This document shows, piece after piece, positions 4,730 through 49,578 of a stretch of DNA of 64,000 bases. Numbering within the stretch: the stretch's first letter is position 1; each line of letters starts with the position of its first letter. This DNA comes from a virus (Duplodnaviria > Heunggongvirae > Uroviricota > Caudoviricetes): IMG/VR virus record IMGVR_UViG_3300006143_000285. The stretch is one strand, 5' to 3'. Both the position numbers and the translations under genes were made by a program. The notes under the pieces were generated by a model. The model was not told the origin of the DNA. It worked only from the letters and a program-made list of their open reading frames with translations, and ran no database searches.

Positions 4730-5185
4730 TTACTGTGAATCAATTATAATATCAAATGGATTGAGATCGAATTCTTTTGTAATGTTTGTATCATCCTGAG
4801 CGGCTTCCATACCATCCTCTGTAAACAGACAGCCTTTTAGAGTTACAGTTTCGGTAGTCCAATCTTCAGTTTCAAACTCATTAGCAAAAGAGATTACCAA
4901 ATCAAATTCCCCAAGTGCGGTAAGCGAGCCGCGTAGGCTACGAATTTGTACCTGTGTGTTGTAGTCCATTGTAATGGAAGCGGTGTACTCCCAATTGCCA
5001 AAACCTCGGTTCACAGGCTTACCACCAAGACCATAGTTGGTCTGCACATTCCACTTACGATTCCATTTAATACCTGTCACACCTTGAAGTGTGATAGAAT
5101 TAGCATTGGCAGACCCAGTAAGTGCAGGAGCAGTCAGCTCAATCATCGCCCACGAATAGGCTACATTATTTACAATCGTTGCCAT
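4730..5185 (-). CDS. tail tube protein (contractile-tail phage)
   Basis: 151 aa, directly downstream of the sheath-like gene. Size and beta-rich composition fit myovirus tube proteins. Confidence 0.4.
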   Translation of the reverse strand: MATIVNNVAYSWAMIELTAPALTGSANANSITLQGVTGIKWNRKWNVQTNYGLGGKPVNRGFGNWEYTASITMDYNTQVQIRSLRGSLTALGEFDLVISFANEFETEDWTTETVTLKGCLFTEDGMEAAQDDTNITKEFDLNPFDIIIDSQ

Positions 5186-5188
5186 TTA

Positions 5189-6520
5189 TTAGGATTGTTG
5201 AGAAAGCGCAAACCCTTCTTCCACTTCGATAATTTTCGAGTAACCCATCGGAATAATGGAATATTTGAGCTTGAGCTTATCGTTTTTCAAGATATTCTGA
5301 GCGGCAGGAATACTGATGGTACCAATGCCGCTGATTTCTTCATTGTCTGCCATTGCTTGCAGAACATCATTTACGAGATTACGGAACAATGCGATATGTG
5401 CCGCAGAGAGTTGACCAGTGGCCGGATCTACTTTAATCTTGTAGTTAACGTAGGGCAAAAGAGCCTGACGAACATTACGACGAGATTTGTTGATTACACG
5501 ATTACGAGCAATAGTGCGATAATCTCCATCAGAACAAGTTGAGTCGCCATTGAAAAATACTTGCCCCTCTCGACCGGCATATTTCATTAAAAAGATGTAA
5601 CCTAAATCATCAAGGTTATTCAACTGCTTCTGAGAAAGAGCAGAATAACGCATCGAATTGGTAAGTGCATCTCCTGTAACTGTGCAATCGCCAAAGCCAA
5701 GCTCAATGTCTGGGAAGTAATTGCCCAGATTGCAATTCATTACACAGCCGATATTGTCAGCCACATTATCACGCGCCAAAAGGCCAAGTGCAGCACCAAT
5801 ATTACCAACAGGAGTCTTACTGTCAAGAGCAATCTGCATCGCACGAACTTGCGTATCAACAGCCTGACTAAGCGCAACAGCCATATAACGGCAATCAATA
5901 ATACAAGATGGTATCTTACTGAACACAACTGTAGTCTGTGTGCCAGTTGCAGTCTTTACTTTTGCAGGATTAGCATTCAATACAAAGACTGCCTGCGCAT
6001 TGTATTCATTGGCCATAGAATTTGCAATAAGCTGAATGTCATCAACAATCTCAATTGCATACTTCTCTGCATCAGCATCGACTTCACGCCACAATGACTG
6101 CTCAGTCCACACACCAAACTGGTTGATAATGCCACCAGATGCTTGCTGCATTTCAAGAAGCGCATTCCAGTTGGTAGAGCAATCTGCAAAAGCGATAAAC
6201 AAACGACCAGTGCCGCCATTCAATTTAAAGAAATGTTCGATATGATAGTATGGAATGCCAAAGAGAAAATCTTTGCTAATACCGTCTTCGGTTTCGCCAG
6301 TGTAGGCTTTAATGCCCAGAGCTGCAACATCATCTAAGCTGTTGAGCTCAACCACAGCGTCTTTCAATTGTTCTGCCATTTCAGCAGCTGGGCCTTTTGT
6401 CCAGAAATCGGTTTGTGCCGAAATGTCAAAAAGCAAACCGCAGACCTTATCGGTAATACTTGAGTGTTCAACGCCAATATTACCATCGGTATCGGTCATA
6501 AATACGCCACCTAAAGCCAT
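5189..6520 (-). CDS. tail sheath protein
   Basis: 443 aa, adjacent to and upstream of the tube gene. Size and position match sheath proteins of Mu-like and P2-like myoviruses. Confidence 0.45.
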   Translation of the reverse strand: MALGGVFMTDTDGNIGVEHSSITDKVCGLLFDISAQTDFWTKGPAAEMAEQLKDAVVELNSLDDVAALGIKAYTGETEDGISKDFLFGIPYYHIEHFFKLNGGTGRLFIAFADCSTNWNALLEMQQASGGIINQFGVWTEQSLWREVDADAEKYAIEIVDDIQLIANSMANEYNAQAVFVLNANPAKVKTATGTQTTVVFSKIPSCIIDCRYMAVALSQAVDTQVRAMQIALDSKTPVGNIGAALGLLARDNVADNIGCVMNCNLGNYFPDIELGFGDCTVTGDALTNSMRYSALSQKQLNNLDDLGYIFLMKYAGREGQVFFNGDSTCSDGDYRTIARNRVINKSRRNVRQALLPYVNYKIKVDPATGQLSAAHIALFRNLVNDVLQAMADNEEISGIGTISIPAAQNILKNDKLKLKYSIIPMGYSKIIEVEEGFALSQQS

Positions 6521-6532
6521 TGTTTTTCAGTG

Positions 6533-6859
6533 TTAAGAGTTATAATAAGGATTTTTGTAAAGAATAGCGGCCTTTGCGACAGCAAGTTTGCATCCGGGAG
6601 AGAACACCCTTCCATCTGGAGCAATGAGCAATTCTGGTTGGTTCGAGAAGACTTTTAGAATGTCTTTTACCCTTTCGGACATCTCAATAACAGGCTCATC
6701 TTTGGCCTTACCCTTGCCAGTTTTCTTAGGCTTCTCAGCCTTATGTTCTTCTGCTACAGTCGGCTGATTTTCCTCAACGACTTCTACAGGAATTGCGACT
6801 TCTACGTCGTCTGTAACTACTGACTTTTCAATTTCTTCTGTATCTTTAATCTTAGCCAT
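6533..6859 (-). CDS. hypothetical small virion protein (head decoration or connector candidate)
   Basis: 108 aa with a Lys/Glu-rich linker, immediately downstream of the major capsid gene. Confidence 0.25.
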   Translation of the reverse strand: MAKIKDTEEIEKSVVTDDVEVAIPVEVVEENQPTVAEEHKAEKPKKTGKGKAKDEPVIEMSERVKDILKVFSNQPELLIAPDGRVFSPGCKLAVAKAAILYKNPYYNS

Positions 6860-6877
6860 AATGTGTTAGAATTAGAA

Positions 6878-6916
6878 ATGGGGAGCGGAGTTTCTTTCTC
6901 CACTCCCCATCACTGT
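6878..6916. terminator. stem-loop terminator or attenuator downstream of the major capsid gene
   Basis: GC hairpin atggggagcggag...ctccactccccat, followed by a T-run on the plus strand and an A/T-rich stretch on the minus strand. Confidence 0.5.
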
Positions 6917-6952
6917 TTTTACTTGTCGGGTAAAATTCCGCGCTCCGGTACG

Positions 6953-8011
6953 TTACGCAGTTTTCTTGTATGCGGTCCAGATGATAATTTCGGCAGGGAG
7001 CACGATATTAACATCCATCTTCATACGCATCTGGAAGAAGTAGAGCTCAGAGTTCGCCTGAAGGCGTTCAACCTTAACAGATTCTTGGTCAGTAGCATAG
7101 TCAACACCCATCCAAAGGTTTGAGTCCATACCAGAGTTGAACTTACCAAGAACGATGGTGTGTTCAGGAACACCGTTAATGACTACGATAGACTTGCCTT
7201 TGAAGCGACGCTTGTTAATGTCAGCGTTCTCAACATACTTCACTTCTTTTCTGGTCAGATACTCGTCATAGAGGTCCCAAAGATCCCAGCCCATAACGAA
7301 CTTCAGGTTCGAGTGCTTACGCAATTTCTTTGGACATGCTCGCCACATTGTGTATAGAGCGGTTTCCACTTGCTCACCAGTAGTAAGCTCAGTGTCACCG
7401 GCAAGAATTGCCTGTCCACCAGCAAGTTCATTTTTGTCGGTAGTAGTCAAGTTATCGAGGATGCGAGCGATTGCACCATCAAAATACTTCATGCTACCAG
7501 CAGCAGACTTGCCACCAAGAACGGTTGCGCCATCAGGACATGTAATCTTGGCATCTACGCCACCCTTGCGGGCACACCAGATAGAATCACCGATGTACTG
7601 ATCTTTCTTGTCAATAAGAAGATGTAGCATCTTCGACTGTACCTTTGGGTCAAGGTCGCGGAACAAGAGCTGGCCATCGGGCTGGAATGGCTTCCAGTAT
7701 TCTTCAAAGTCACGAGGATTGAATTCAAGATAAACCATGAAATCCTGTGGATCAAGATAACGTTCCGAGAAAGTGTACTGGTTAAAACCGTCTTCAGTTG
7801 CGCCACCCTCAGCAGAAGTTGGAGTAGGCTTGTTATCCTGAATAATTTCACCAAGTTCGATGTGAGGAAGCACATAACGCTTCTGAACACCGGATTTGAT
7901 GTGAATCAACCCCTCGGCAAATGTATCATTACCTTGTGCGGTATAGACCAAAAGGTCTTCCAGCACTTCGCCGGAGTAGGTATTACCGGCGTAATTAATA
8001 TTGCCTGCCAT
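6953..8011 (-). CDS. major capsid protein (HK97-fold candidate)
   Basis: 352 aa, directly downstream of the prohead protease-scaffold gene and followed by a terminator hairpin. Classical protease-scaffold-MCP order. Confidence 0.5.
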   Translation of the reverse strand: MAGNINYAGNTYSGEVLEDLLVYTAQGNDTFAEGLIHIKSGVQKRYVLPHIELGEIIQDNKPTPTSAEGGATEDGFNQYTFSERYLDPQDFMVYLEFNPRDFEEYWKPFQPDGQLLFRDLDPKVQSKMLHLLIDKKDQYIGDSIWCARKGGVDAKITCPDGATVLGGKSAAGSMKYFDGAIARILDNLTTTDKNELAGGQAILAGDTELTTGEQVETALYTMWRACPKKLRKHSNLKFVMGWDLWDLYDEYLTRKEVKYVENADINKRRFKGKSIVVINGVPEHTIVLGKFNSGMDSNLWMGVDYATDQESVKVERLQANSELYFFQMRMKMDVNIVLPAEIIIWTAYKKTA

Positions 8012-35455: not shown

Positions 35456-35821
35456 ATGAAGCATACAGACTTCTATCATCTCCTTGAGGCAATTAAAAAG
35501 CACGAGGAAAATGAACTTATCGCTGCCGTAATTGCTCATGGCGGTGAAATAGGATTCAGCTCTGAGGATGCTCCTGTGATATTGGCATCGACCAAACACG
35601 CAGAGTGTGCATCAGACTACAAAGTAGAGAAAGTTACGGTAGAGCGTGTAGATGGTCACGACTGGCTTACGGTATTTGGCGTAGAGAACGAGTATGGTTT
35701 TGATACTGAAATCATCTATGCAGAACCGGGCCACCTAAGCTATATCACCGGTCGCATCCCGGAAACTGTGGCAGTAAGCGATGTATCTATTCCAATCAAC
35801 TTTGGCGGATTTGTTAAATAA
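35456..35821 (+). CDS. hypothetical protein
   Basis: 121-aa ORF. Confidence 0.3.
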   Translation: MKHTDFYHLLEAIKKHEENELIAAVIAHGGEIGFSSEDAPVILASTKHAECASDYKVEKVTVERVDGHDWLTVFGVENEYGFDTEIIYAEPGHLSYITGRIPETVAVSDVSIPINFGGFVK

Positions 35822-35893
35822 CGAATGTTAAAGTCGAGTTTATGGACAACGTAGGACACCAACACCAACTATTCTTCACAAACATCAGCAACA

Positions 35894-36238
35894 ATGCCAT
35901 ATCGCAGTGACAATATACCCATCGCCGGAACAAAACACGATAAGCGAGTTAAGTTGACTCAAGATGAGCGAAATGCTATTATCATTCTCGTTCAGAAAGG
36001 TTACAGTCAACGCAAGCTTGCAGCGATGTTCAGGGTCTCAAGAAGACTCATCCAGCATATAATTAACCCTCAGCCTCGTCCGCCTGCTCCTAAAAGATCA
36101 GCTGAATACTGGGCTGAGGCAAAGAGGAAATATCGGAAACGTAAACAGGAACTATTAAAAACAGGAAAAATCCATGCCCCGAAAAAGAAAACGAGTCCGA
36201 AAGCCTATCCTCGAAAATCCCGCAGAGATAAAGATTGA
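35894..36238 (+). CDS. basic HTH DNA-binding protein upstream of the RT
   Basis: HTH-like segment YSQRKLAAMFRVSRRLIQHI, then a Lys/Arg-rich tail. Confidence 0.35.
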   Translation: MPYRSDNIPIAGTKHDKRVKLTQDERNAIIILVQKGYSQRKLAAMFRVSRRLIQHIINPQPRPPAPKRSAEYWAEAKRKYRKRKQELLKTGKIHAPKKKTSPKAYPRKSRRDKD

Positions 36239-36422
36239 GGACTTTATATCTTCTCTCCTAACATTGAGTGGGCTAAGAAAAAATAGAGACTTTAAAATAG
36301 CCGATTATCAGTTATTTATCTACAAACATCCAATTAGAGGTAAGCTTATAAGCATTTTAAAAGAACTCTACCCACAATATAATTTCTACTGGGAAACCGC
36401 AAGGCTTCTCAGATGGTTTTAA
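36174..36422 (+). CDS. small basic hypothetical protein immediately upstream of the RT
   Basis: 82-aa ORF overlapping the previous gene and ending 17 nt before the RT start. Confidence 0.25.
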   Translation: MPRKRKRVRKPILENPAEIKIEDFISSLLTLSGLRKNRDFKIADYQLFIYKHPIRGKLISILKELYPQYNFYWETARLLRWF

Positions 36423-36438
36423 CCCCGCAAACAGTAAA

Positions 36439-37695
36439 ATGGATTACATCTTAGAAAAATTCTTTGAACCTGAACGATGGATATATGCTATCGAGAAAGG
36501 TGTCGGCAAGAGCATCGCTAAGAGCGAGCTTTATCAGTTGACAAAGCCGGAAACACGAGTTCAGATGTATGAAGCAATCCGTGATGGCCGCTACGAAATA
36601 GCCCCACCGCATACAGCACAAATTCCTAAGGACAATGGAGAATATCGAACCGTGTATATCAATGAACCGGCAGATCGCATACTTCTCAGTATCACAAATG
36701 ACTTGTTGTTTGAACTGATGCCTGAGATGATACACCCACATTGCCAATCATATCAGAAAGGTATTGGCTGTGGGAAAATTGTTCAGGAAGCGTCACGCAA
36801 AATATGTGAAACCCAAGGCGATGTGATTGGCTGGAAAGCTGATTTAAGTAAATATTTTGACAGCGTTCCCCTTCGTTTCATTGATGCGGCTTTTGATTCA
36901 GTAGAAGCAAAGTATGGTCATTCTTCATTGATTGATGTGCTTAGGAAATACTATCATTCTGATTTATACTTCGACACTGATGGGCAACTTAAAAGCGCAT
37001 ATCAATCACTTAAACAGGGCTGTTCAGTCGCCTCGTGGCTTGCTGATGTCATTCTTTATGACATTGATGAAGAATTAGCTAAACTTGATGGCTACGATGT
37101 CAGATATTCAGATGACATTTTGTTCATCGGAACCGATTACGAGGTTGCAATGAATGTGTTGAAAGATAAACTGGCTGAGAAAGAAATGACGCTCAACCCC
37201 AAGAAAGTCGAATACCTTACTCATACCCGATGGTTTAAGTTTCTCGGATATTCCATCAAAGGTTCTGACATTTCATTAAGCGGGACCAGAATTAAGAAAT
37301 TCCAGAAAGAAATCGAGGCTCGCACCATCAAAGCAAAAGGTGCAACACTGAAGAAAGCCATCAACGCTGTCAATCGCTTTCTTTATAAAGGAAATGGAGA
37401 ATATAGCTGGGCCACTCAAATTCTGCCGGTATGCAACGTTAAGAAAGACATTCAGGAACTTAACAAATTTGTGATGGATTGTCTGAAAGCGGTTGCTACA
37501 GGAAAGAAGAAAGTTGGTGGTCTCGGTTATGTCGCCACTCAATCAGAAGGATGTATTTCACGAGGTATAGGACGCAACGTTAAAGCAAATCGCTCTAAGA
37601 TTGTAACAATTGATGGGTATTTAACCATCAATTGTATGCAAAACGCAATGGTTGCCAGTCGTGAAGCGTACAAAACGTTGGTTGCTACTTTATAA
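36439..37695 (+). CDS. reverse transcriptase (group-II-intron-like / retron-like class; not DGR-type by motif 4)
   Basis: RT motifs present: RT0/1 (GRYEIAPPHTAQIPKDNGEYRTVYINEPADRIL), motif 3 (KADLSKYFDSVP), motif 4 (QGCSVASWLADV), motif 5 (RYSDDILFIG, a YxDD box), motif 7 (FKFLGYSI). No maturase X or endonuclease domain. 418 aa. Confidence 0.85.
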   Translation: MDYILEKFFEPERWIYAIEKGVGKSIAKSELYQLTKPETRVQMYEAIRDGRYEIAPPHTAQIPKDNGEYRTVYINEPADRILLSITNDLLFELMPEMIHPHCQSYQKGIGCGKIVQEASRKICETQGDVIGWKADLSKYFDSVPLRFIDAAFDSVEAKYGHSSLIDVLRKYYHSDLYFDTDGQLKSAYQSLKQGCSVASWLADVILYDIDEELAKLDGYDVRYSDDILFIGTDYEVAMNVLKDKLAEKEMTLNPKKVEYLTHTRWFKFLGYSIKGSDISLSGTRIKKFQKEIEARTIKAKGATLKKAINAVNRFLYKGNGEYSWATQILPVCNVKKDIQELNKFVMDCLKAVATGKKKVGGLGYVATQSEGCISRGIGRNVKANRSKIVTIDGYLTINCMQNAMVASREAYKTLVATL

Positions 37696-37699
37696 TAAT

Positions 37700-38990
37700 T
37701 ATCTGAGTGCGCAGTGACGGTAGAATGACAAGTATTTAATAATCCCGTGAACGAACAATGGCGGGATAATATCAACAAATAAAGCAACGCACTACAAGTC
37801 TGACTATCGTCAATAACCGAGTGTACGGAGAGGATGGAAAGAAGCCACCTTCAATTATCTGTCTCTAACCAGAAGACGTCATCGAGGAGTCGTGCCGACT
37901 CCTCTCAGCCGTCTTCTGGTTAGACAGATACATATCAACAATATATAGAACTACACTATGCTTCTAACTATTCTCAAATCTGAGTATGCAGATGATAGTT
38001 GAATGGCCGAGAAATTCAGTCATCCTGAATCCTTATTTTCGAGAGGTCAGCTGGAGAGCCTCCAGCTTTCTCTCGACAACTGTATTCAGGAGTACATCGA
38101 ATAGAATACAGAAACATACAATCGGCATGACAACTATAAGCTGGATGTGCAGCGCGTGATTGGAAATCCCGGTATTTAATGAGCACGAGTATATCTCCTG
38201 TACCGGGACGACTTCTACTTCAGAAGGATTCTGATGTATCAGCGTCCCGGTACAGGATCTCACTCGTAGTCATATCAAAAACATATAGTTACACATAATC
38301 GGAAACACAATCACATCGTCGAGTATGCGATCAACCACATAATATGATGAAGATTTAATGTGATAGCTCCTCCATCATTCGTCGTCATCTCCTAACGGAT
38401 ATGACGACGAATAGTCGGTAGCTTCTCATATCAACTTTATAAAGAAACATACAACCATCATTGAGTGTGGCACTGAAGCACAGCAGATTATTGTTCAATG
38501 ATTACACTTTCAGTCGAACTGTTACATATCGCGGGGGCCCTGCCGGTTATCTGGCCCTACCGTGACATCTTCCCGGCAGGCCCGCCGCGTAATAAACAGT
38601 TCACATCAATCAGATATAGCGATGTGCAAAGTAATTGAGAACAATATAGATAGCGCAAATATGATGATCAAGACAGTAAGATTCATTGTGGGCTGCCACA
38701 CGCAAGGATCTTCTCCAGTCGAATCAACTGGAGCTGATCCTTCAGTATCAGCCCGCACATTGAAAGAGTTAAAGAAATGCGCCATGCTGATGAGATTATC
38801 ATAAAATGTAACGTAACATCGAAATGCAAGAGGTTCTGTTTCATTCATCGGGGCCGGGCACCCTCCCAAGCCCGCAGGACCATTCGGAGGAATCCTCCGA
38901 GGTCCTGCTTTCGCTTGAGGAGGCCTTCGCTTCCCTCGATGACATCATAGAAATACAGAAATACGTCAAGACTTTGAGCATTTCATTTTT
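37700..38990 (+). ncRNA. 1.3-kb ORF-free region downstream of the RT, densely packed with long, nested GC-rich stem-loops (candidate structured RNA or template region)
   Basis: At least 7 strong hairpins, for example: 37855..37928 (20-bp outer stem plus 9-bp inner stem); 38010..38100 (three nested 7-bp stems); 38196..38256; 38374..38412 (12-bp stem attcgtcgtcat/atgacgacgaat); 38530..38590 (cgcggg..cccgcg); 38688..38760 (nested); 38866..38900 (gcaggacc..ggtcctgc with inner tcggagg/cctccga). AT-rich spacers carry recurring CATATC or ATATAG motifs. Confidence 0.4.
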
Positions 38991-38999
38991 AACAACTAT

Positions 39000-39449
39000 A
39001 TGACAAACATCTACAAAGAATCAATCGAAAAGGTTGAGCAAGGCTCCCGATTCAGCGTCAATTTTATAGAACATAGCCTCAAAATTGATGGCAAATACAT
39101 TATCAAGAACGGACAATTTGACGGCTGTCTGGGCATTGAGCCTTCCGACTTTTCTCTCGCTGAGATTGAGCGACTTTATCATCGTTACAATCACAGCATC
39201 CCATCTGCTCGAAGTGATAACAAAAGACGCAATTATTTCCGAGCACTTCCAGAACACGAGCTTGACGATGAAGATATGCTTTACGGAGAGCATCGTGAAA
39301 CCGCTCAGATTGCATTGGAGCTTTATCTTCTCATTGCAATCATCAACCAATCTATCGTATGGGATGAATTTGCTAAGGACAAATGGTTCTGGCAATCTCC
39401 CAACGAACCCTCTCTCATCATTCTTAAAAAATGGATTATCAAACAGTAA
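39000..39449 (+). CDS. hypothetical protein
   Basis: 149-aa ORF. Confidence 0.35.
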   Translation: MTNIYKESIEKVEQGSRFSVNFIEHSLKIDGKYIIKNGQFDGCLGIEPSDFSLAEIERLYHRYNHSIPSARSDNKRRNYFRALPEHELDDEDMLYGEHRETAQIALELYLLIAIINQSIVWDEFAKDKWFWQSPNEPSLIILKKWIIKQ

Positions 39450-40522
39450 ACTCAATAATTATGCCAAATCAGGAAACTAAAATCGTATGCCCCGTATGTG
39501 GAGCCAACTTCGCAATTCCCGCACATCAGCACATCGCAACCGGTGTAGCAGTGGGAAAAGACAGCAATCTTGGAACTGTCGCTCTTACTCTTGACAGTGA
39601 ACAACCCCAATCTGGCAGACTCTCAGCTGACGATAAGCTGACAGCTCTCCGTAACGCTGGGGTCAATGTCGCGAACTTGTTCTCAATGCGTGGAGCGTCT
39701 GGAGAAAGCAAGATTGTTCGTATGGTCAACAATCAGGTTGTAGAAGTGCCTGACAACGACCCCATATTCGCTAAGATTATGGCAGGCGGTACAATTCCTA
39801 ATCGCCGTCTATTCCGTCGTTGGGTGATGGCTCAGGCATTCCACATGCTTGTCGCTCCCGGCGGCTTTACTGAAGCTCTCAATCGAAAGGGTTATCAGTA
39901 TTCGTGGGAAATGCTTCTCGAAGAGCTGCGTGTTCAGGCTAAACTTGAGGTAACTGATATTGAGAATTTTGTTGAACGTAATCGCTGGTTCAACAAGGCT
40001 GTAGCAATCGGAATGGCCAAAGACTATCTCGCTCAACTCAAAGTAATCGTGAAAGATCGACATGTGCGTAAATGTCAAGGTCGCAAATATATCCGCATCT
40101 GTCATCGAAACATATTCGTTGACAATGTGGAAGCTGAAGTGTGGGGGCCTCTGACGGTGTGGTACAACCACATCAATGAAGCCAACAATACCGCAGAACT
40201 ATATCTGGCTGTTAAAGGGTTTTATAAAGCGGTTAAGAATTGCTATGTCAAATCAAGCATGAGACAGGCTGGCATCTTCAAAGGTGCATACAAAGGAGCG
40301 GGTGCATTCTTCACGCTCAAAAATCTTATCCTCTTTCACGGATGTCGTATGTACGTTGAAGGCCGAGCCTTATCTCAGATTGGCTCTATCAAAAAGCTCC
40401 ACGACAAGGCCGCAGAACACCAAACTGACGGTTGGAAACTGTTCGGCTTGATGAAGAAATTCATTGAGGACAATGACATTGACATAAAAGCAAAAATGGC
40501 CGGATGGCGCAAAAGAAAATGA
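39431..40522 (+). CDS. hypothetical protein (N-terminal CxxC)
   Basis: 363-aa ORF. Confidence 0.4.
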   Translation: MDYQTVNSIIMPNQETKIVCPVCGANFAIPAHQHIATGVAVGKDSNLGTVALTLDSEQPQSGRLSADDKLTALRNAGVNVANLFSMRGASGESKIVRMVNNQVVEVPDNDPIFAKIMAGGTIPNRRLFRRWVMAQAFHMLVAPGGFTEALNRKGYQYSWEMLLEELRVQAKLEVTDIENFVERNRWFNKAVAIGMAKDYLAQLKVIVKDRHVRKCQGRKYIRICHRNIFVDNVEAEVWGPLTVWYNHINEANNTAELYLAVKGFYKAVKNCYVKSSMRQAGIFKGAYKGAGAFFTLKNLILFHGCRMYVEGRALSQIGSIKKLHDKAAEHQTDGWKLFGLMKKFIEDNDIDIKAKMAGWRKRK

Positions 40523-41860: not shown

Positions 41861-43091
41861 CAAGACTTAATCTGACAATTACGGATAAAAACATTACCTT
41901 TGTAAAAAGAAAAGATTAAGCCATGACCACATCAGAAAAAGTCATCAAGAACAAACTGGGACTGTTGGAACTGTCCCAGCAACTGGGCAACGTGTCGCGC
42001 GCCTGCAAGATAATGGGCTACAGCCGCGACAGCTTCTACCGCTTCAAGGAACTATACGAGCAGGGCGGAGAACTCGCGTTGCAGGAGATATCGCGCCGCA
42101 AGCCGGTGATAAAGAACCGAGTTGAGGAGCGCATAGAGAACGCCGTCGTGCAGATGGCCTTCGAGAACCCGGCACTCGGACAGGTGCGCGTGTCCAACGA
42201 ACTGCGCAAGAGGGGCATAATGGTCTCGCAGGGAGGGGTGCGCTCCATATGGCTGCGCCACGATCTGGAGACTTTTCAGAAACGCCTGAAAGCACTGTCG
42301 GCCAAAGTCGAGCAGGAAGGGATAATCCTTGACGAAACGCAGGTGGCGGCTCTGGAGAAGGCAAAGGCCGAGAAACAGGCACACGGCGAGATCGAGACGT
42401 TCCACCCCGGCTTCCTTGTGGCCCAGGACACATATTATGTGGGTCATATCAAGGGCGTGGGACACATCTACCAGCAGACCGTGATAGACACATATTCCAA
42501 AATCGGCTTCGCCAAACTGTACGACCGTAAGAATGCCCTTGTCGCCGCCGACATGCTCAACGACCGCGTCGTGCCTTTCTTTGAGCAGCACGACCTCAAG
42601 GTGATGAGGATGCTCACCGACCGGGGAACGGAGTACTGCGGCAACCGTGAGACCCACGAGTTCGAGCTGTACCTCGCAATCGAGGACATAGACCACTCAA
42701 GGATAAAGGCCAAAAGCCCGCAGACCAACGGCATCTGCGAGAGGTTCAACAGAACCGTACAGAACGAGTTCTACGCCATTGCGTTCCGCAAGAAGATATA
42801 CACATCCATCGATCAGCTTCAGGCTGACCTCGACGCGTGGATGAGCCACTACAACACCGAGAGAACCCACTCCGGAAAATACTGCTTTGGCAAAACCCCT
42901 ATGCAGACTTTCATCGAGGGTATCGCCGTGGCAAGGAGGTACGACATACAGCACCAGGGGCTACACTCGCAAGAGGGGGAGACTCAAAATATCTCCACCT
43001 CTTGCGCAACTGAACCCAAATCACTAAATTTGTCAACACAATCTGACAATTTTTTCTCGGTGAAATAATTTATTTGTCAGATGAAGTCTTG
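41861..43091 (+). mobile_element. IS481-family-like insertion sequence with imperfect terminal inverted repeats
   Basis: Left end caagacttaatctgacaa (41861..41878). Right end tttgtcagatgaagtcttg (43073..43091), which is the reverse complement caagacttcatctgacaa, a 17/18 match. Internal GC is clearly higher than the flanking phage DNA. Confidence 0.75.
41923..43068 (+). CDS. DDE transposase (IS481-family-like; rve integrase-core)
   Basis: 381 aa. N-terminal HTH, then DDE core containing LTDRGTEYCG and ICERFNRTVQNEFY motifs typical of IS481 and IS3 rve-domain transposases. Confidence 0.8.
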   Translation: MTTSEKVIKNKLGLLELSQQLGNVSRACKIMGYSRDSFYRFKELYEQGGELALQEISRRKPVIKNRVEERIENAVVQMAFENPALGQVRVSNELRKRGIMVSQGGVRSIWLRHDLETFQKRLKALSAKVEQEGIILDETQVAALEKAKAEKQAHGEIETFHPGFLVAQDTYYVGHIKGVGHIYQQTVIDTYSKIGFAKLYDRKNALVAADMLNDRVVPFFEQHDLKVMRMLTDRGTEYCGNRETHEFELYLAIEDIDHSRIKAKSPQTNGICERFNRTVQNEFYAIAFRKKIYTSIDQLQADLDAWMSHYNTERTHSGKYCFGKTPMQTFIEGIAVARRYDIQHQGLHSQEGETQNISTSCATEPKSLNLSTQSDNFFSVK

Positions 43092-48337: not shown

Positions 48338-48733
48338 ATGAGTCACCCAACAGACGGCATCGCAACAGATGCAGCCCACTCAACAAAGCGAGGCGTTACA
48401 GAGTATCAAGGTATAGACCTTACAACCGGTGAGCGCATTTTCTACCGAAATCTCGGAAATCAAACCGTGAACATTGGTGAATTCTTGGCGGTAGTTGAAG
48501 CTGCAAAATATATCATCGAGAATGATTACGAGCCACGAGTGATATACACTGACAGTATGACTGCCTTGACGTGGTTCAAAAACAAGTCAACTGCTTCCAA
48601 TAAGAAAAATAGGGAACTTCAGAAAGCTGAAATATTCCTCAAAGCACTCTCGGCTGATATAGACACAATCGAAGTCAGGCATTGGGACAACAAACGCTGG
48701 GGTGAAACTCCTGCGGACTTTGGAAACAAGTAA
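48338..48733 (+). CDS. ribonuclease H-like protein
   Basis: 131 aa. GIATDAA...IGEFLAVVEAAKY...VIYTDSMTALTW...ADFGNK matches the RNase HI D-E-D-D layout. Confidence 0.5.
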   Translation: MSHPTDGIATDAAHSTKRGVTEYQGIDLTTGERIFYRNLGNQTVNIGEFLAVVEAAKYIIENDYEPRVIYTDSMTALTWFKNKSTASNKKNRELQKAEIFLKALSADIDTIEVRHWDNKRWGETPADFGNK

Positions 48734-49038: not shown

Positions 49039-49110
49039 TGCGGGATAGAGCAGTGGTAGCTTGCTGGGCTCATTACCCAGAGGTCGTAGGTTCGAGTCCT
49101 ACTCCCGCTA
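49039..49110 (+). tRNA. tRNA-Met(CAT), initiator-like
   Basis: Cloverleaf with anticodon loop CTCATTA. GGG/CCC in the anticodon stem and a 1:72 mismatch, both initiator features. Confidence 0.7.
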
Positions 49111-49168
49111 CAAAGGCACTCACCAATATAGGGAGCCAGCTGAGAGGTTCACCACTCTCAGCAAAATC

Positions 49169-49252
49169 GGGCTACTGGCGAAATGGTAGACGCGCTGGTC
49201 TTAGGAACCAGTATCGAAAGGTGTGCAGGTTCGAGTCCTGCGTGGCCCACCA
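49169..49252 (+). tRNA. tRNA-Leu(TAG)
   Basis: Long variable arm, anticodon loop CTTAGGA. CCA is encoded. Confidence 0.7.
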
Positions 49253-49268
49253 ACAAATTCTAAAAGAT

Positions 49269-49481
49269 ATGGACACAGTATTCAACAACCGTCGTGATTC
49301 AGTGATTAGATCACTGCAAGACAATCAATCTGAAATCGCATTGCTTAATGCCGATATTGACAACAAAATTGCTGCACATAAGGCTGAGATAGCGATGCTA
49401 AAGCTCCAAAAGAAGGAGTTGAAACAGACTAAAGTACGTCACGGTTGGCTGCTGTCCATGTTAATTCGGTGGCTTAAATAA
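49269..49481 (+). CDS. small coiled-coil protein between tRNA genes
   Basis: 70-aa in-frame tail (MDTVFNNRRDSV...) of the 49020 track ORF. Its upstream part overlaps two tRNAs and is discarded. Confidence 0.3.
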   Translation: MDTVFNNRRDSVIRSLQDNQSEIALLNADIDNKIAAHKAEIAMLKLQKKELKQTKVRHGWLLSMLIRWLK

Positions 49482-49489
49482 ACTTCTAA

Positions 49490-49573
49490 GCTCCGGTGGC
49501 GGAATGGTAGACGCGAGGGACTTAAAATCCCTTGGTCATAGTGACCGTCTGGGTTCGACTCCCAGTCGGAGCA
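49490..49573 (+). tRNA. tRNA-Leu(TAA)
   Basis: Long variable arm, anticodon loop CTTAAAA. Confidence 0.7.
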
Positions 49574-49578
49574 CATAA

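Follow-up and report, generated by a model that had tools for sequence, protein, structure and literature searches.

What kind of retroelement places a reverse transcriptase (RT) gene directly ahead of 1.3 kb of hairpin-filled phage DNA in which no meaningful open reading frame (ORF) can be found? The question is raised by positions 36439-38990 of the Caudoviricetes record IMGVR_UViG_3300006143_000285, of which a stretch of 64,000 nucleotides (nt) was analyzed (the window, to which all coordinates refer). The locus is almost certainly a UG27 RT module, carried by a gut phage of Bacteroidales with a genome of ~110 kb; the finding is genuine, and the kind of system is one already described as UG27, not a new one. 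An earlier note, written from the sequence alone, had held that the layout matches no known one and could be novel, a claim that gives way to the description of UG27 with an intergenic non-coding RNA (ncRNA) by Mestre et al. (PMC9226505). Taken as a whole, the locus is best explained, in a reading that we favor with some reservation, by a UG27 RT that has a downstream array as its RNA partner and copies it into hairpin-forming complementary DNAs (cDNAs). The module is ordered as RT gene, tandem array of eight structured units, 149-amino acid (aa) protein, and 353-aa protein:

36439-37695, plus strand: UG27-family RT of 418 aa with a YSDD active site (PADLOC RT_UG27, Pfam RVT_1).
37696-38999 (1304 nt), plus strand: non-coding tandem array of eight units of ~165 nt each (periodic motifs, non-coding evolution, homologous arrays).
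39000-39449, plus strand: conserved accessory protein 1, 149 aa (conserved order behind the array).
39461-40522, plus strand: conserved accessory protein 2, 353 aa from the ATG at 39461 (conserved order behind the array).

The RT matched the PADLOC profile RT_UG27 over its entire length (residues 1-418 on profile positions 2-420 of 420; E 1.4e-224, 743.7 bits), with UG26 as the runner-up at 118 bits, followed by UG17 (83 bits), Drt9/UG28 (78 bits), and retron profiles (~34 bits); scores against the PADLOC profiles of characterized Class 2 UG defense RTs were 33-83 bits. Among NCBIfam models, the group II model TIGR04416 reached 94 bits (cut-off 300) and retron_St85_RT 37.4 bits (cut-off 235), and the Drt2, Drt3a, and Drt4 models all scored far under their cut-offs. 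The solved structures nearest in sequence were group-II-like RTs (E ~1e-12; best 3e-12), with DRT9 at 5e-4. In Pfam, RVT_1 covered the complete model (1-205 of 205; E 4.5e-22) and was the only domain, with maturase and endonuclease domains not found. The translation contains LKQGCSVASWLADVILY, VRYSDDILFIG, and the motif quoted by the earlier note, QGCSVASWLADV. That note had described an RT with a YSDD box and without maturase or endonuclease domains, which belonged to neither the diversity-generating retroelements (DGRs), the retrons, nor the group II introns and might be a DRT-like enzyme carried by a phage; each of these points is borne out, the last by the full-length UG27 match of 744 bits. 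Substitutions at the three codon positions of the RT ORF, counted over the same pairs as for the array below, were 49/26/189, a ~4-fold excess at the third position, and indels were in-frame only. Judged from its sequence, the RT is an intact member of UG27, a UG/Abi Class 2 group, and the bias of its substitutions toward third codon positions points to purifying selection.

The RT stop codon and the start of the array are 7 nt apart, without a terminator between them, and the array is most likely transcribed as a 3′ extension of the RT mRNA. Each unit consists of a long hairpin of 70-100 nt that is specific to its position, a linker of fixed length, and a small structured module. The linker has the consensus ATC-N7-TAAAG-N2-AYRYRY and is single-stranded, and the 6-nt loop of the small hairpin within the module is complementary to AYRYRY. 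The parts are as follows, with z-scores for hairpins taken from 200 dinucleotide shuffles each, none of which (0/200) folded as well for any of the seven long hairpins:

37696-37741, plus strand: half-module at the 5′ end with small hairpin CTG-AGTGCG-CAG (37703-37714), read from the sequence; in all relatives the array likewise starts with a half-module whose small hairpin has an AGCACA-type loop.
37742-37767, plus strand: hairpin 1, a 26-nt stub (z -3.1).
37768-37855, plus strand: module 1, ATC-AACAAA-TAAAG-CA-ACGCAC, with small hairpin CCG-AGTGTA-CGG (motif at 37771; alignment with relatives).
37856-37930, plus strand: hairpin 2 (-45.8 kcal/mol, z -9.0; inverted repeat I1).
37931-38022, plus strand: module 2, CATATC-AACAATA-TATAG, with small hairpin CTG-AGTATG-CAG (motif at 37934; alignment).
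38023-38091, plus strand: hairpin 3, with outer stem TCCTGAAT/ATTCAGGA and inner stem TCGAGAGG...CTCTCGA (from the sequence; domain 38006-38126, z -6.1).
38092-38178, plus strand: module 3, ACATC-GAATAGAA-TACAG-AA-ACATAC, with small hairpin GCTG-GATGTG-CAGC (motif at 38096; alignment).
38179-38273, plus strand: hairpin 4 (-51.7 kcal/mol, z -8.1; inverted repeat I4, 15/15 complementary).
38274-38357, plus strand: module 4, ATC-AAAAACA-TATAG-TT-ACACAT, with small hairpin TCG-AGTATG-CGA (strict motif at 38274).
38358-38431, plus strand: hairpin 5 (z -6.4; inverted repeat I5).
38430-38512, plus strand: module 5, ATC-AACTTTA-TAAAG-AA-ACATAC (strict motif at 38430).
38513-38604, plus strand: hairpin 6 (z -5.0; inverted repeat I6).
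38605-38681, plus strand: module 6, ATC-AATCAGA-TATAG-CG-ATGTGC (strict motif at 38605).
38682-38764, plus strand: hairpin 7 (z -7.3; compensatory changes against L168, L001, and L081).
38759-38844, plus strand: module 7, ATT-GAAAGAGT-TAAAG-AA-ATGCGC (relaxed motif at 38759).
38845-38942, plus strand: hairpin 8 (-57.8 kcal/mol, z -5.7).
38943-38999, plus strand: half-module at the 3′ end, ATC-ATAGAAA-TACAG-AA-ATACGT...TTTGAGCA, running up to the start codon of the next gene (strict motif at 38944).

A terminal half-module (..ATGCGTC..TTCGAGTGC) also closes the array in relatives. At its two ends the array has half a module each, the 3′ half at the start and the 5′ half at the finish, so the functional unit probably runs small hairpin, long hairpin, linker. 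A relaxed form of the linker motif, AT[CT]-N6-8-TA[ACT]AG-N2-3-[AC]YRYRY, had eight plus-strand matches in the 64 kb, all within the array and spaced 154-185 nt apart, and a single match outside it, on the other strand; the strict form matched 4 times against 0.03 expected. Module 6 is the copy in the window nearest to the consensus of the main clade of relatives described below, whose motif profile detected it by nhmmer at E 9e-4.

Several lines of evidence indicate that the array does not encode protein. The longest start-to-stop ORFs in 37696-38999 are 87 aa on the minus strand and 80 aa on the plus strand, in mixed frames. Substitutions are spread evenly over the codon positions (e.g., 105/106/117 for the window against L162, one of the related loci, which are denoted by L numbers), and only 27 of 205 indels among relatives are multiples of 3, leaving 178 that are not. 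Where stop-free stretches of the array were compared with relatives, the translated matches switched frames and strands. A hidden ORF was considered, as many arrays have stop-free plus-strand stretches of up to 330 codons, and was rejected on the lack of 3-periodicity, the frame-breaking indels, and the unconserved frames. These results agree with the earlier note, which had seen 1.3 kb without a meaningful ORF, at least seven long stem-loops (seven are now placed at z -5.0 to -9.0, plus a short eighth), and repeated CATATC or ATATAG motifs in the spacers, where the relaxed linker motif has all eight of its plus-strand matches. Its picture of GC-rich stems in an AT-rich genome holds for the stems, which are locally GC-rich, and not for the region, since GC content is 0.41-0.45 throughout and the array is compositionally like its surroundings.

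The pairing of RT and array is not peculiar to this phage. The layout of RT, array of 5-8 units, 149-aa protein, and 353-aa protein was found in ~160 loci in phage, metagenome, and Bacteroidales genomes, so that the physical and evolutionary tie between RT and downstream structured RNA proposed by the earlier note is upheld. Among the first 161 viral and metagenomic loci fetched, 143 kept the order RT, gap, 149-aa protein, and 353-aa protein, with gaps of 276-1466 nt; relatives included IMG/VR viral contigs of 40-120 kb, and further ones with the same layout were reached through a search with the 149-aa protein. L047 was the sole RT locus with a much reduced array (276 nt). When IMG/VR was scanned with the linker motif, 120 stretches were recovered; a UG27 RT lay upstream in the same orientation in 66/66 periodic arrays with enough upstream sequence to be tested, and the 11 stretches without an RT were all solitary chance matches.

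The relatives form a main clade, whose RTs are 64-70% identical to that of the window, and a divergent clade that holds the window itself together with L164, L162, L168, L169, L001/L082/L083, and phage BS-TP1. In the main clade, the linker motif recurs every 150-190 nt, 5, 6, or 7 times per locus, and the linker nAYAUC-N7-UAAAG-N2-AUGUG is exactly 25 nt long in 212/219 non-identical modules, with free variation in the central 7 nt; the module that follows is ~60 nt long and comprises UGAGAA, a short hairpin with an AGCACA-type hexaloop, and GUUCAAGGAAU. The window's clade has the linker motif ATATAG/ACAYAC in place of TAAAG/ATGTGCC, and its elements (CAUAUC, AUAUAG/AUACAG, ACAYAC, loop GAGUAUGC) follow the same order, spacing, and half-modules as in the main clade. 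Arrays evidently lose or shorten units quickly, to judge from hairpin 1, a 26-nt stub in the window and a ~70-nt hairpin in L164, the RT of which is 97% identical. In the L004-type arrays of seven units (~1450 nt), a stretch of ~300 nt (gap ~1140-1447) without the repeat pattern precedes the 149-aa gene and contains ATGAACGTAAAAGAC; it may be an extra small gene.

One relative is in culture: Bacteroides phage BS-TP1 (L081, PQ571274.1; host Bacteroides salyersiae) has the same layout at 4989-7600. Its UG27 RT (gp79) is mislabeled as a 'tail protein' and its 1.35-kb array is unannotated, which is a database error. At least some other carriers are, from their genomic setting, integrated prophages, because full loci sit within chromosome assemblies of Bacteroides, Alistipes, and Butyricimonas. 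The invariant core of the main-clade hairpin 2, GAGUCUUGAAGG/CCUUCAGACUC, occurred in 14 bacterial assemblies (Bacteroides, Alistipes, Butyricimonas, and others; complete or large chromosomes of the first two among them), 14/14 times inside an RT-array-accessory locus, and the idea that the hairpin is a copy of host sequence was rejected, as the core was found in bacterial genomes only within UG27 loci. Complete UG27 loci in chromosomes include L290-L303, e.g., in NZ_AP031424.1 (Alistipes sp.) and NZ_DS499577.1 (Alistipes putredinis DSM 17216). The pattern for the hairpin-4 core of the window's clade had no exact match in IMG/VR.

The homologous loci were examined for covariation, a check the earlier note had proposed, and compensatory changes were seen both in the small hairpin and in hairpin 2. 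All 4 pairs of the small hairpin show such changes (UA to CG); 14 cells were changed on both sides against 4.4 in shuffles, with 0/500 shuffles as high, and 94% of cells were paired against 44-61% in slid controls. In hairpin 2 of the main clade, 5/20 predicted pairs carry compensatory changes, the apical closing pair being CG16/UA7/AU5/GC1, and the middle stem alternates between CCAGCUC/GAGCUGG, CGUCUUC/GAAGACG, and UCCAUCU/AGAUGGA. In the window's clade, entire hairpins are swapped for unrelated sequences with pairing retained; the outer pairing of hairpin 3 is kept in L162, and the core of hairpin 4, CCGGGACG/CGTCCCGG, in L164, L162, L168, and L169. In RNAalifold predictions from two independent alignments, the AUGUG(C) element pairs with the loop of the small hairpin, an interaction proposed here as a pseudoknot. 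An enclosing helix (P1) around the small hairpin, plausible by eye, had no single register on the MAFFT alignment and was not counted. A search of 35.5-39.8 kb against Rfam at E up to 1 returned only chance-level matches to mir-552 and leuA and no known RNA family.

In one case a hairpin appears to have been turned around: the inner 42 nt of hairpin 2 (37856-37930) align with L164 (2360-2437) better when reverse-complemented (score 33 reverse, 19 forward), in a pair of loci with RTs 97% identical. Recombination between the arms or replacement by a cDNA copy could explain this inversion. As a general mode of hairpin evolution, inversion was rejected, as 0/6398 main-clade ortholog pairs showed it and the window against L164 was the sole case.

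As to the strand from which the RNA would be read, mismatches within stacked helices were G/T in 35 cases and A/C in 17 (p 0.018), and in a stricter, smaller in-helix sample 18 and 2; because G/T exceeds A/C within helices, an array RNA read from the plus strand is modestly favored. In the long hairpins, G-U pairs make up 5.7% of pairs against 10.2% in other helices, a low content that would be expected if the complementary DNA must also fold.

On these comparisons, the array is very probably the RNA partner of the RT; that the long hairpin serves as the template comes somewhat short of an even chance, and any specific biological role is doubtful. In the mechanism proposed, the RT and array would be made as one plus-strand transcript, and RT molecules would recognize the repeated module and linker of each unit, as these are the only parts conserved between units. 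Reverse transcription would most likely start in the linker and run through the upstream long hairpin, so that from one transcript a constant repertoire of single-stranded cDNAs would arise, 5-8 in number and each folding into a different hairpin; during infection they would act by themselves or together with the two accessory proteins. Two observations favor copying of the hairpins: even in distant phages, a given position in the array retains a hairpin sequence of its own, and G-U pairs are about half as frequent in the long hairpins as in other helices. As for the role, the carriage of UG27 by phages and its lack of enrichment in defense islands make counter-defense or host takeover the best guess, with competition between phages as a further possibility. 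In its most elaborate form, which we regard as speculative and unlikely, the array would be a multiplexed template set from which 5-8 hairpin single-stranded DNAs are made in cis, the conserved core of each being read by a different partner (host defense sensors or the accessory proteins), in effect a phage 'multi-retron' for counter-defense or takeover.

Several observations weigh against this account. The closest characterized relatives of the RT copy a short single-stranded template and not a long hairpin (10.64898/2026.06.29.735271). The pseudoknot rests on conserved complementarity, without double-sided covariation, and among loci of the window's clade the loop partner reappears with 4-6-bp matches that are no better than shuffles. 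The minus strand of the window folds slightly more stably than the plus strand (-483.9 against -460.8 kcal/mol), and when all aligned juxtapositions including internal loops are counted, A/C (155) exceeds G/T (83); strand tests by whole-array folding energy or by all G-U counts are opposite in sign to the in-helix count, and it was the in-helix count that was relied on. No host target is indicated in the window, where the hairpins match nothing else in 64 kb, and the 149-aa and 353-aa accessory proteins yielded no functional clue and no known domain.

The first of these observations leads, by analogy with DRT9, DRT10, and DRT3, to the main alternative, which we consider unlikely: the template would be the 25-nt single-stranded linker, copied repeatedly in a telomerase-like manner into tandem-repeat DNA, with the flanking helices (the long hairpin 5′ of the linker, the small module 3′ of it) anchoring the RT and the array gathering several RTs on one RNA. 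UG27 is a Class 2 UG RT whose nearest characterized profiles are UG17 (83 bits) and Drt9/UG28 (78 bits), and the rule for that class is a short single-stranded template between two anchored stem-loops (10.64898/2026.06.29.735271), a description that suits a linker of exactly 25 nt in 212/219 modules with 7 freely varying nt in its middle. Some linkers are even perfect direct repeats, such as ATC-AAAGCAAT-AAAGCAAT-GTG, in slight excess over shuffled and swapped controls (z 2.5-3.0). The signal for A-B-A′ microhomology is nevertheless weak, with offsets anywhere from 4 to 12 nt and no fixed register, and copying of the linker would leave the position-specific hairpin sequences and the avoidance of G-U pairs unexplained. 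Rather improbably, the array might instead act as RNA only, its hairpins being decoys or regulators (sponges for host RNA-binding defense proteins, RNase III substrates) and the RT either merely co-transcribed or dependent on the RNA as a scaffold or activator that it does not copy. Structure selected at the RNA level, conserved position-specific hairpin cores that suggest sequence-specific readers, and the anti-defense or addiction role suggested by Mestre et al. (PMC9226505) would all fit; what such a reading must set aside is the complete linkage, in that no periodic array was found without a UG27 RT, the intact catalytic site of an RT under purifying selection, and the fact that all characterized relatives of this RT class copy their ncRNA.

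It is very improbable that the array is a DNA- or transcription-level element unrelated to the RT, such as a cruciform replication origin, a packaging site, or a series of terminators or attenuators. The dense inverted repeats, the intergenic position, and a minus strand that folds as well as the plus strand are what such an element might show, but all eight motifs lie on one strand, the conserved modules are non-palindromic and contain a covarying small hairpin, in-helix G/T exceeds A/C, and in prophages and in phages of unrelated families alike the array goes strictly with one RT family. A terminator scan found no hairpin with a T-run in 37696-38999, so the terminator array that the earlier note had offered as an alternative falls away; in 35800-39600 there was one terminator-like site, outside the array, where 2.8 were expected for the region. 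Least credible of all, and barely to be entertained, is a classical retroelement, be it a DGR with a distant template repeat and variable repeat (TR/VR), a retron, or a degenerate group II intron. The RT motifs are generic, the best matches in the PDB are group-II-like (E 3e-12), and TIGR04416 gives 94 bits; these family scores are, however, far under their cut-offs (94 against 300, and 37 against 235 for the retron model) beside the 744 bits of UG27, and no group II intron or retron RNA of Rfam was matched in 35.5-39.8 kb. Apart from tRNA genes, the window has no direct repeats of ≥40 nt, so no TR/VR pair is present there, and the array matches nothing else in the window (best ≤14 nt); the TR/VR search, likewise suggested by the earlier note, covered the 64-kb window, with the rest of the phage genome outside it, and its result is consistent with a non-DGR RT.

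The preferred reading, a UG27 RT that copies a cis-encoded array, can be set beside systems already described. UG27 was defined by Mestre et al. (2022, Nucleic Acids Research; PMC9226505), who found it in 1447 dereplicated gut-phage genomes together with protein clusters of unknown function, clusters 336, 337, and 346 being associated with it; the authors reported a putative conserved intergenic ncRNA after the RT 'with three long stem-loops' and CRISPR spacers against the ncRNA region, and found UG27 to be phage-borne (gut phages of Bacteroidetes or Firmicutes) without association with defense islands. The window shares the full-length profile match, the large Bacteroidales phage, the domain-less conserved proteins next to the RT, the location outside a defense island, and, as far as the published description allows the likeness to be drawn, long stem-loops in a structured non-coding region that separates the RT from the next conserved gene. 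The difference is that the paper describes one ncRNA with three stem-loops, whereas the loci here have a tandem array of 5-8 units, eight of them in the window. This tandem-unit architecture exceeds the description of Mestre et al., and a 2026 preprint (10.64898/2026.09.22.753630), known to us by term counts only, appears to use 'ncRNA array' for UG27. Details that may yet be new are the putatively pseudoknotted recognition module that recurs along the array, the linker length of exactly 25 nt, and hairpin cores specific to their positions.

In the characterized Class 2 UG RTs (DRT2, DRT3, DRT9, and DRT10), a cis-encoded structured ncRNA templates cDNA, stem-loops frame the template, and the length of the template is set by geometry (10.64898/2026.06.29.735271). 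The locus resembles DRT9 (UG28), DRT10, DRT2 (UG2), and DRT3a in RT class, in an RT without endonuclease or maturase domain, in an adjoining structured ncRNA, and in a fixed single-stranded window between two helices. The DRT ncRNAs are single-copy and, in DRT2 and DRT9, upstream of the RT, whereas the RNA here is downstream, repeated 5-8 times, and phage-borne; DRT systems protect bacteria, often with effectors (SLATT, nitrilase), and make tandem-repeat or homopolymer DNA, whereas the partners here are two different proteins. With retrons the locus would share, as a possible mode of action, a conserved recognition element beside a long hairpin that could be copied to hairpin single-stranded DNA, but its RT falls outside the retron clade (34-37 bits), its RNA is downstream and multi-copy, and no a1/a2 duplex or effector gene was seen. 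DGRs likewise have a phage-encoded RT without maturase or endonuclease domains; here the RT is of a different family, and the 64-kb window has no TR/VR pair and no Avd gene. Nor was group II intron RNA matched by Rfam at E up to 1 on 35500-39800.

Of the two conserved proteins, the 149-aa one is probably one of the UG27-associated clusters of Mestre et al., an identity inferred here. In another contig, a fragment of the 149-aa protein is fused to an rve_3 domain (P0230). The 353-aa protein combines a zinc-ribbon-like CxxC stretch at its N terminus with a helical bundle at its C terminus; the start of its gene is most likely the ATG at 39461 and not 39431, because an identical public protein (P0001) and all homologs begin there. 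One further small gene lies ahead of the RT:

36174-36422, plus strand: small upstream ORF, 82 aa (tblastn 56% in L001/L002; an 82-aa gene just 5′ of the RT in L162, L164, and L168).

This ORF is kept directly 5′ of the RT solely in the window's own clade, had no match in Pfam or PHROG, and may be an accessory gene.

Beyond the module, an IS481-like transposase gene (rve/rve_3 core plus HTH_29; 41923-43068, plus strand) occupies a 1-kb island with a GC content of 0.56 against the 0.41-0.45 background and appears, from its composition and position, to be an insertion sequence that landed 0.8 kb 3′ of the UG27 module; L162 and L164 have no transposase gene at the corresponding place. At a distance of 9.3 kb 3′ of the RT there is a 131-aa RNase H gene (48338-48733, plus strand; NCBIfam RNaseH_Halikb E 4e-23, Pfam RNase_H 24 bits), and its product may serve replication or the processing of RNA-DNA hybrids made by the RT. 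It is followed by 20 tRNA genes at 49039-52822 (plus strand), including tRNA-Phe(AAA) and three tRNA-Leu, and the window otherwise consists mostly of small ORFs without assignment. Such tRNA clusters are typical of large virulent-style phages, and this one possibly counters tRNA-targeting host defenses. In relatives, an RNA ligase (PF09414) is encoded a few kb 3′ of the module (L168, 6349-7056; L162, 7471-8268; L164, 6965-7450; L169, 5959-6738), and in one of these four a Tad2-like (anti-Thoeris) gene lies near the module; the gene content hints that the neighborhood of the module is an anti-defense or repair region.

To our knowledge, UG27 stands alone among the large UG/Abi RT families in residing in phages instead of bacterial defense islands. 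Its bacterial relatives DRT2, DRT3, DRT9, and DRT10 each revealed an unexpected way to make DNA from a small RNA, and BS-TP1 on Bacteroides salyersiae offers a ready experimental system for UG27 function. If the reading advanced here is true, a UG27 enzyme working with 5-8 distinct, conserved hairpin units would extend the DRT theme to multiple templates for the first time, and could be a counter-defense device in the very abundant Bacteroidales phages of the human gut.

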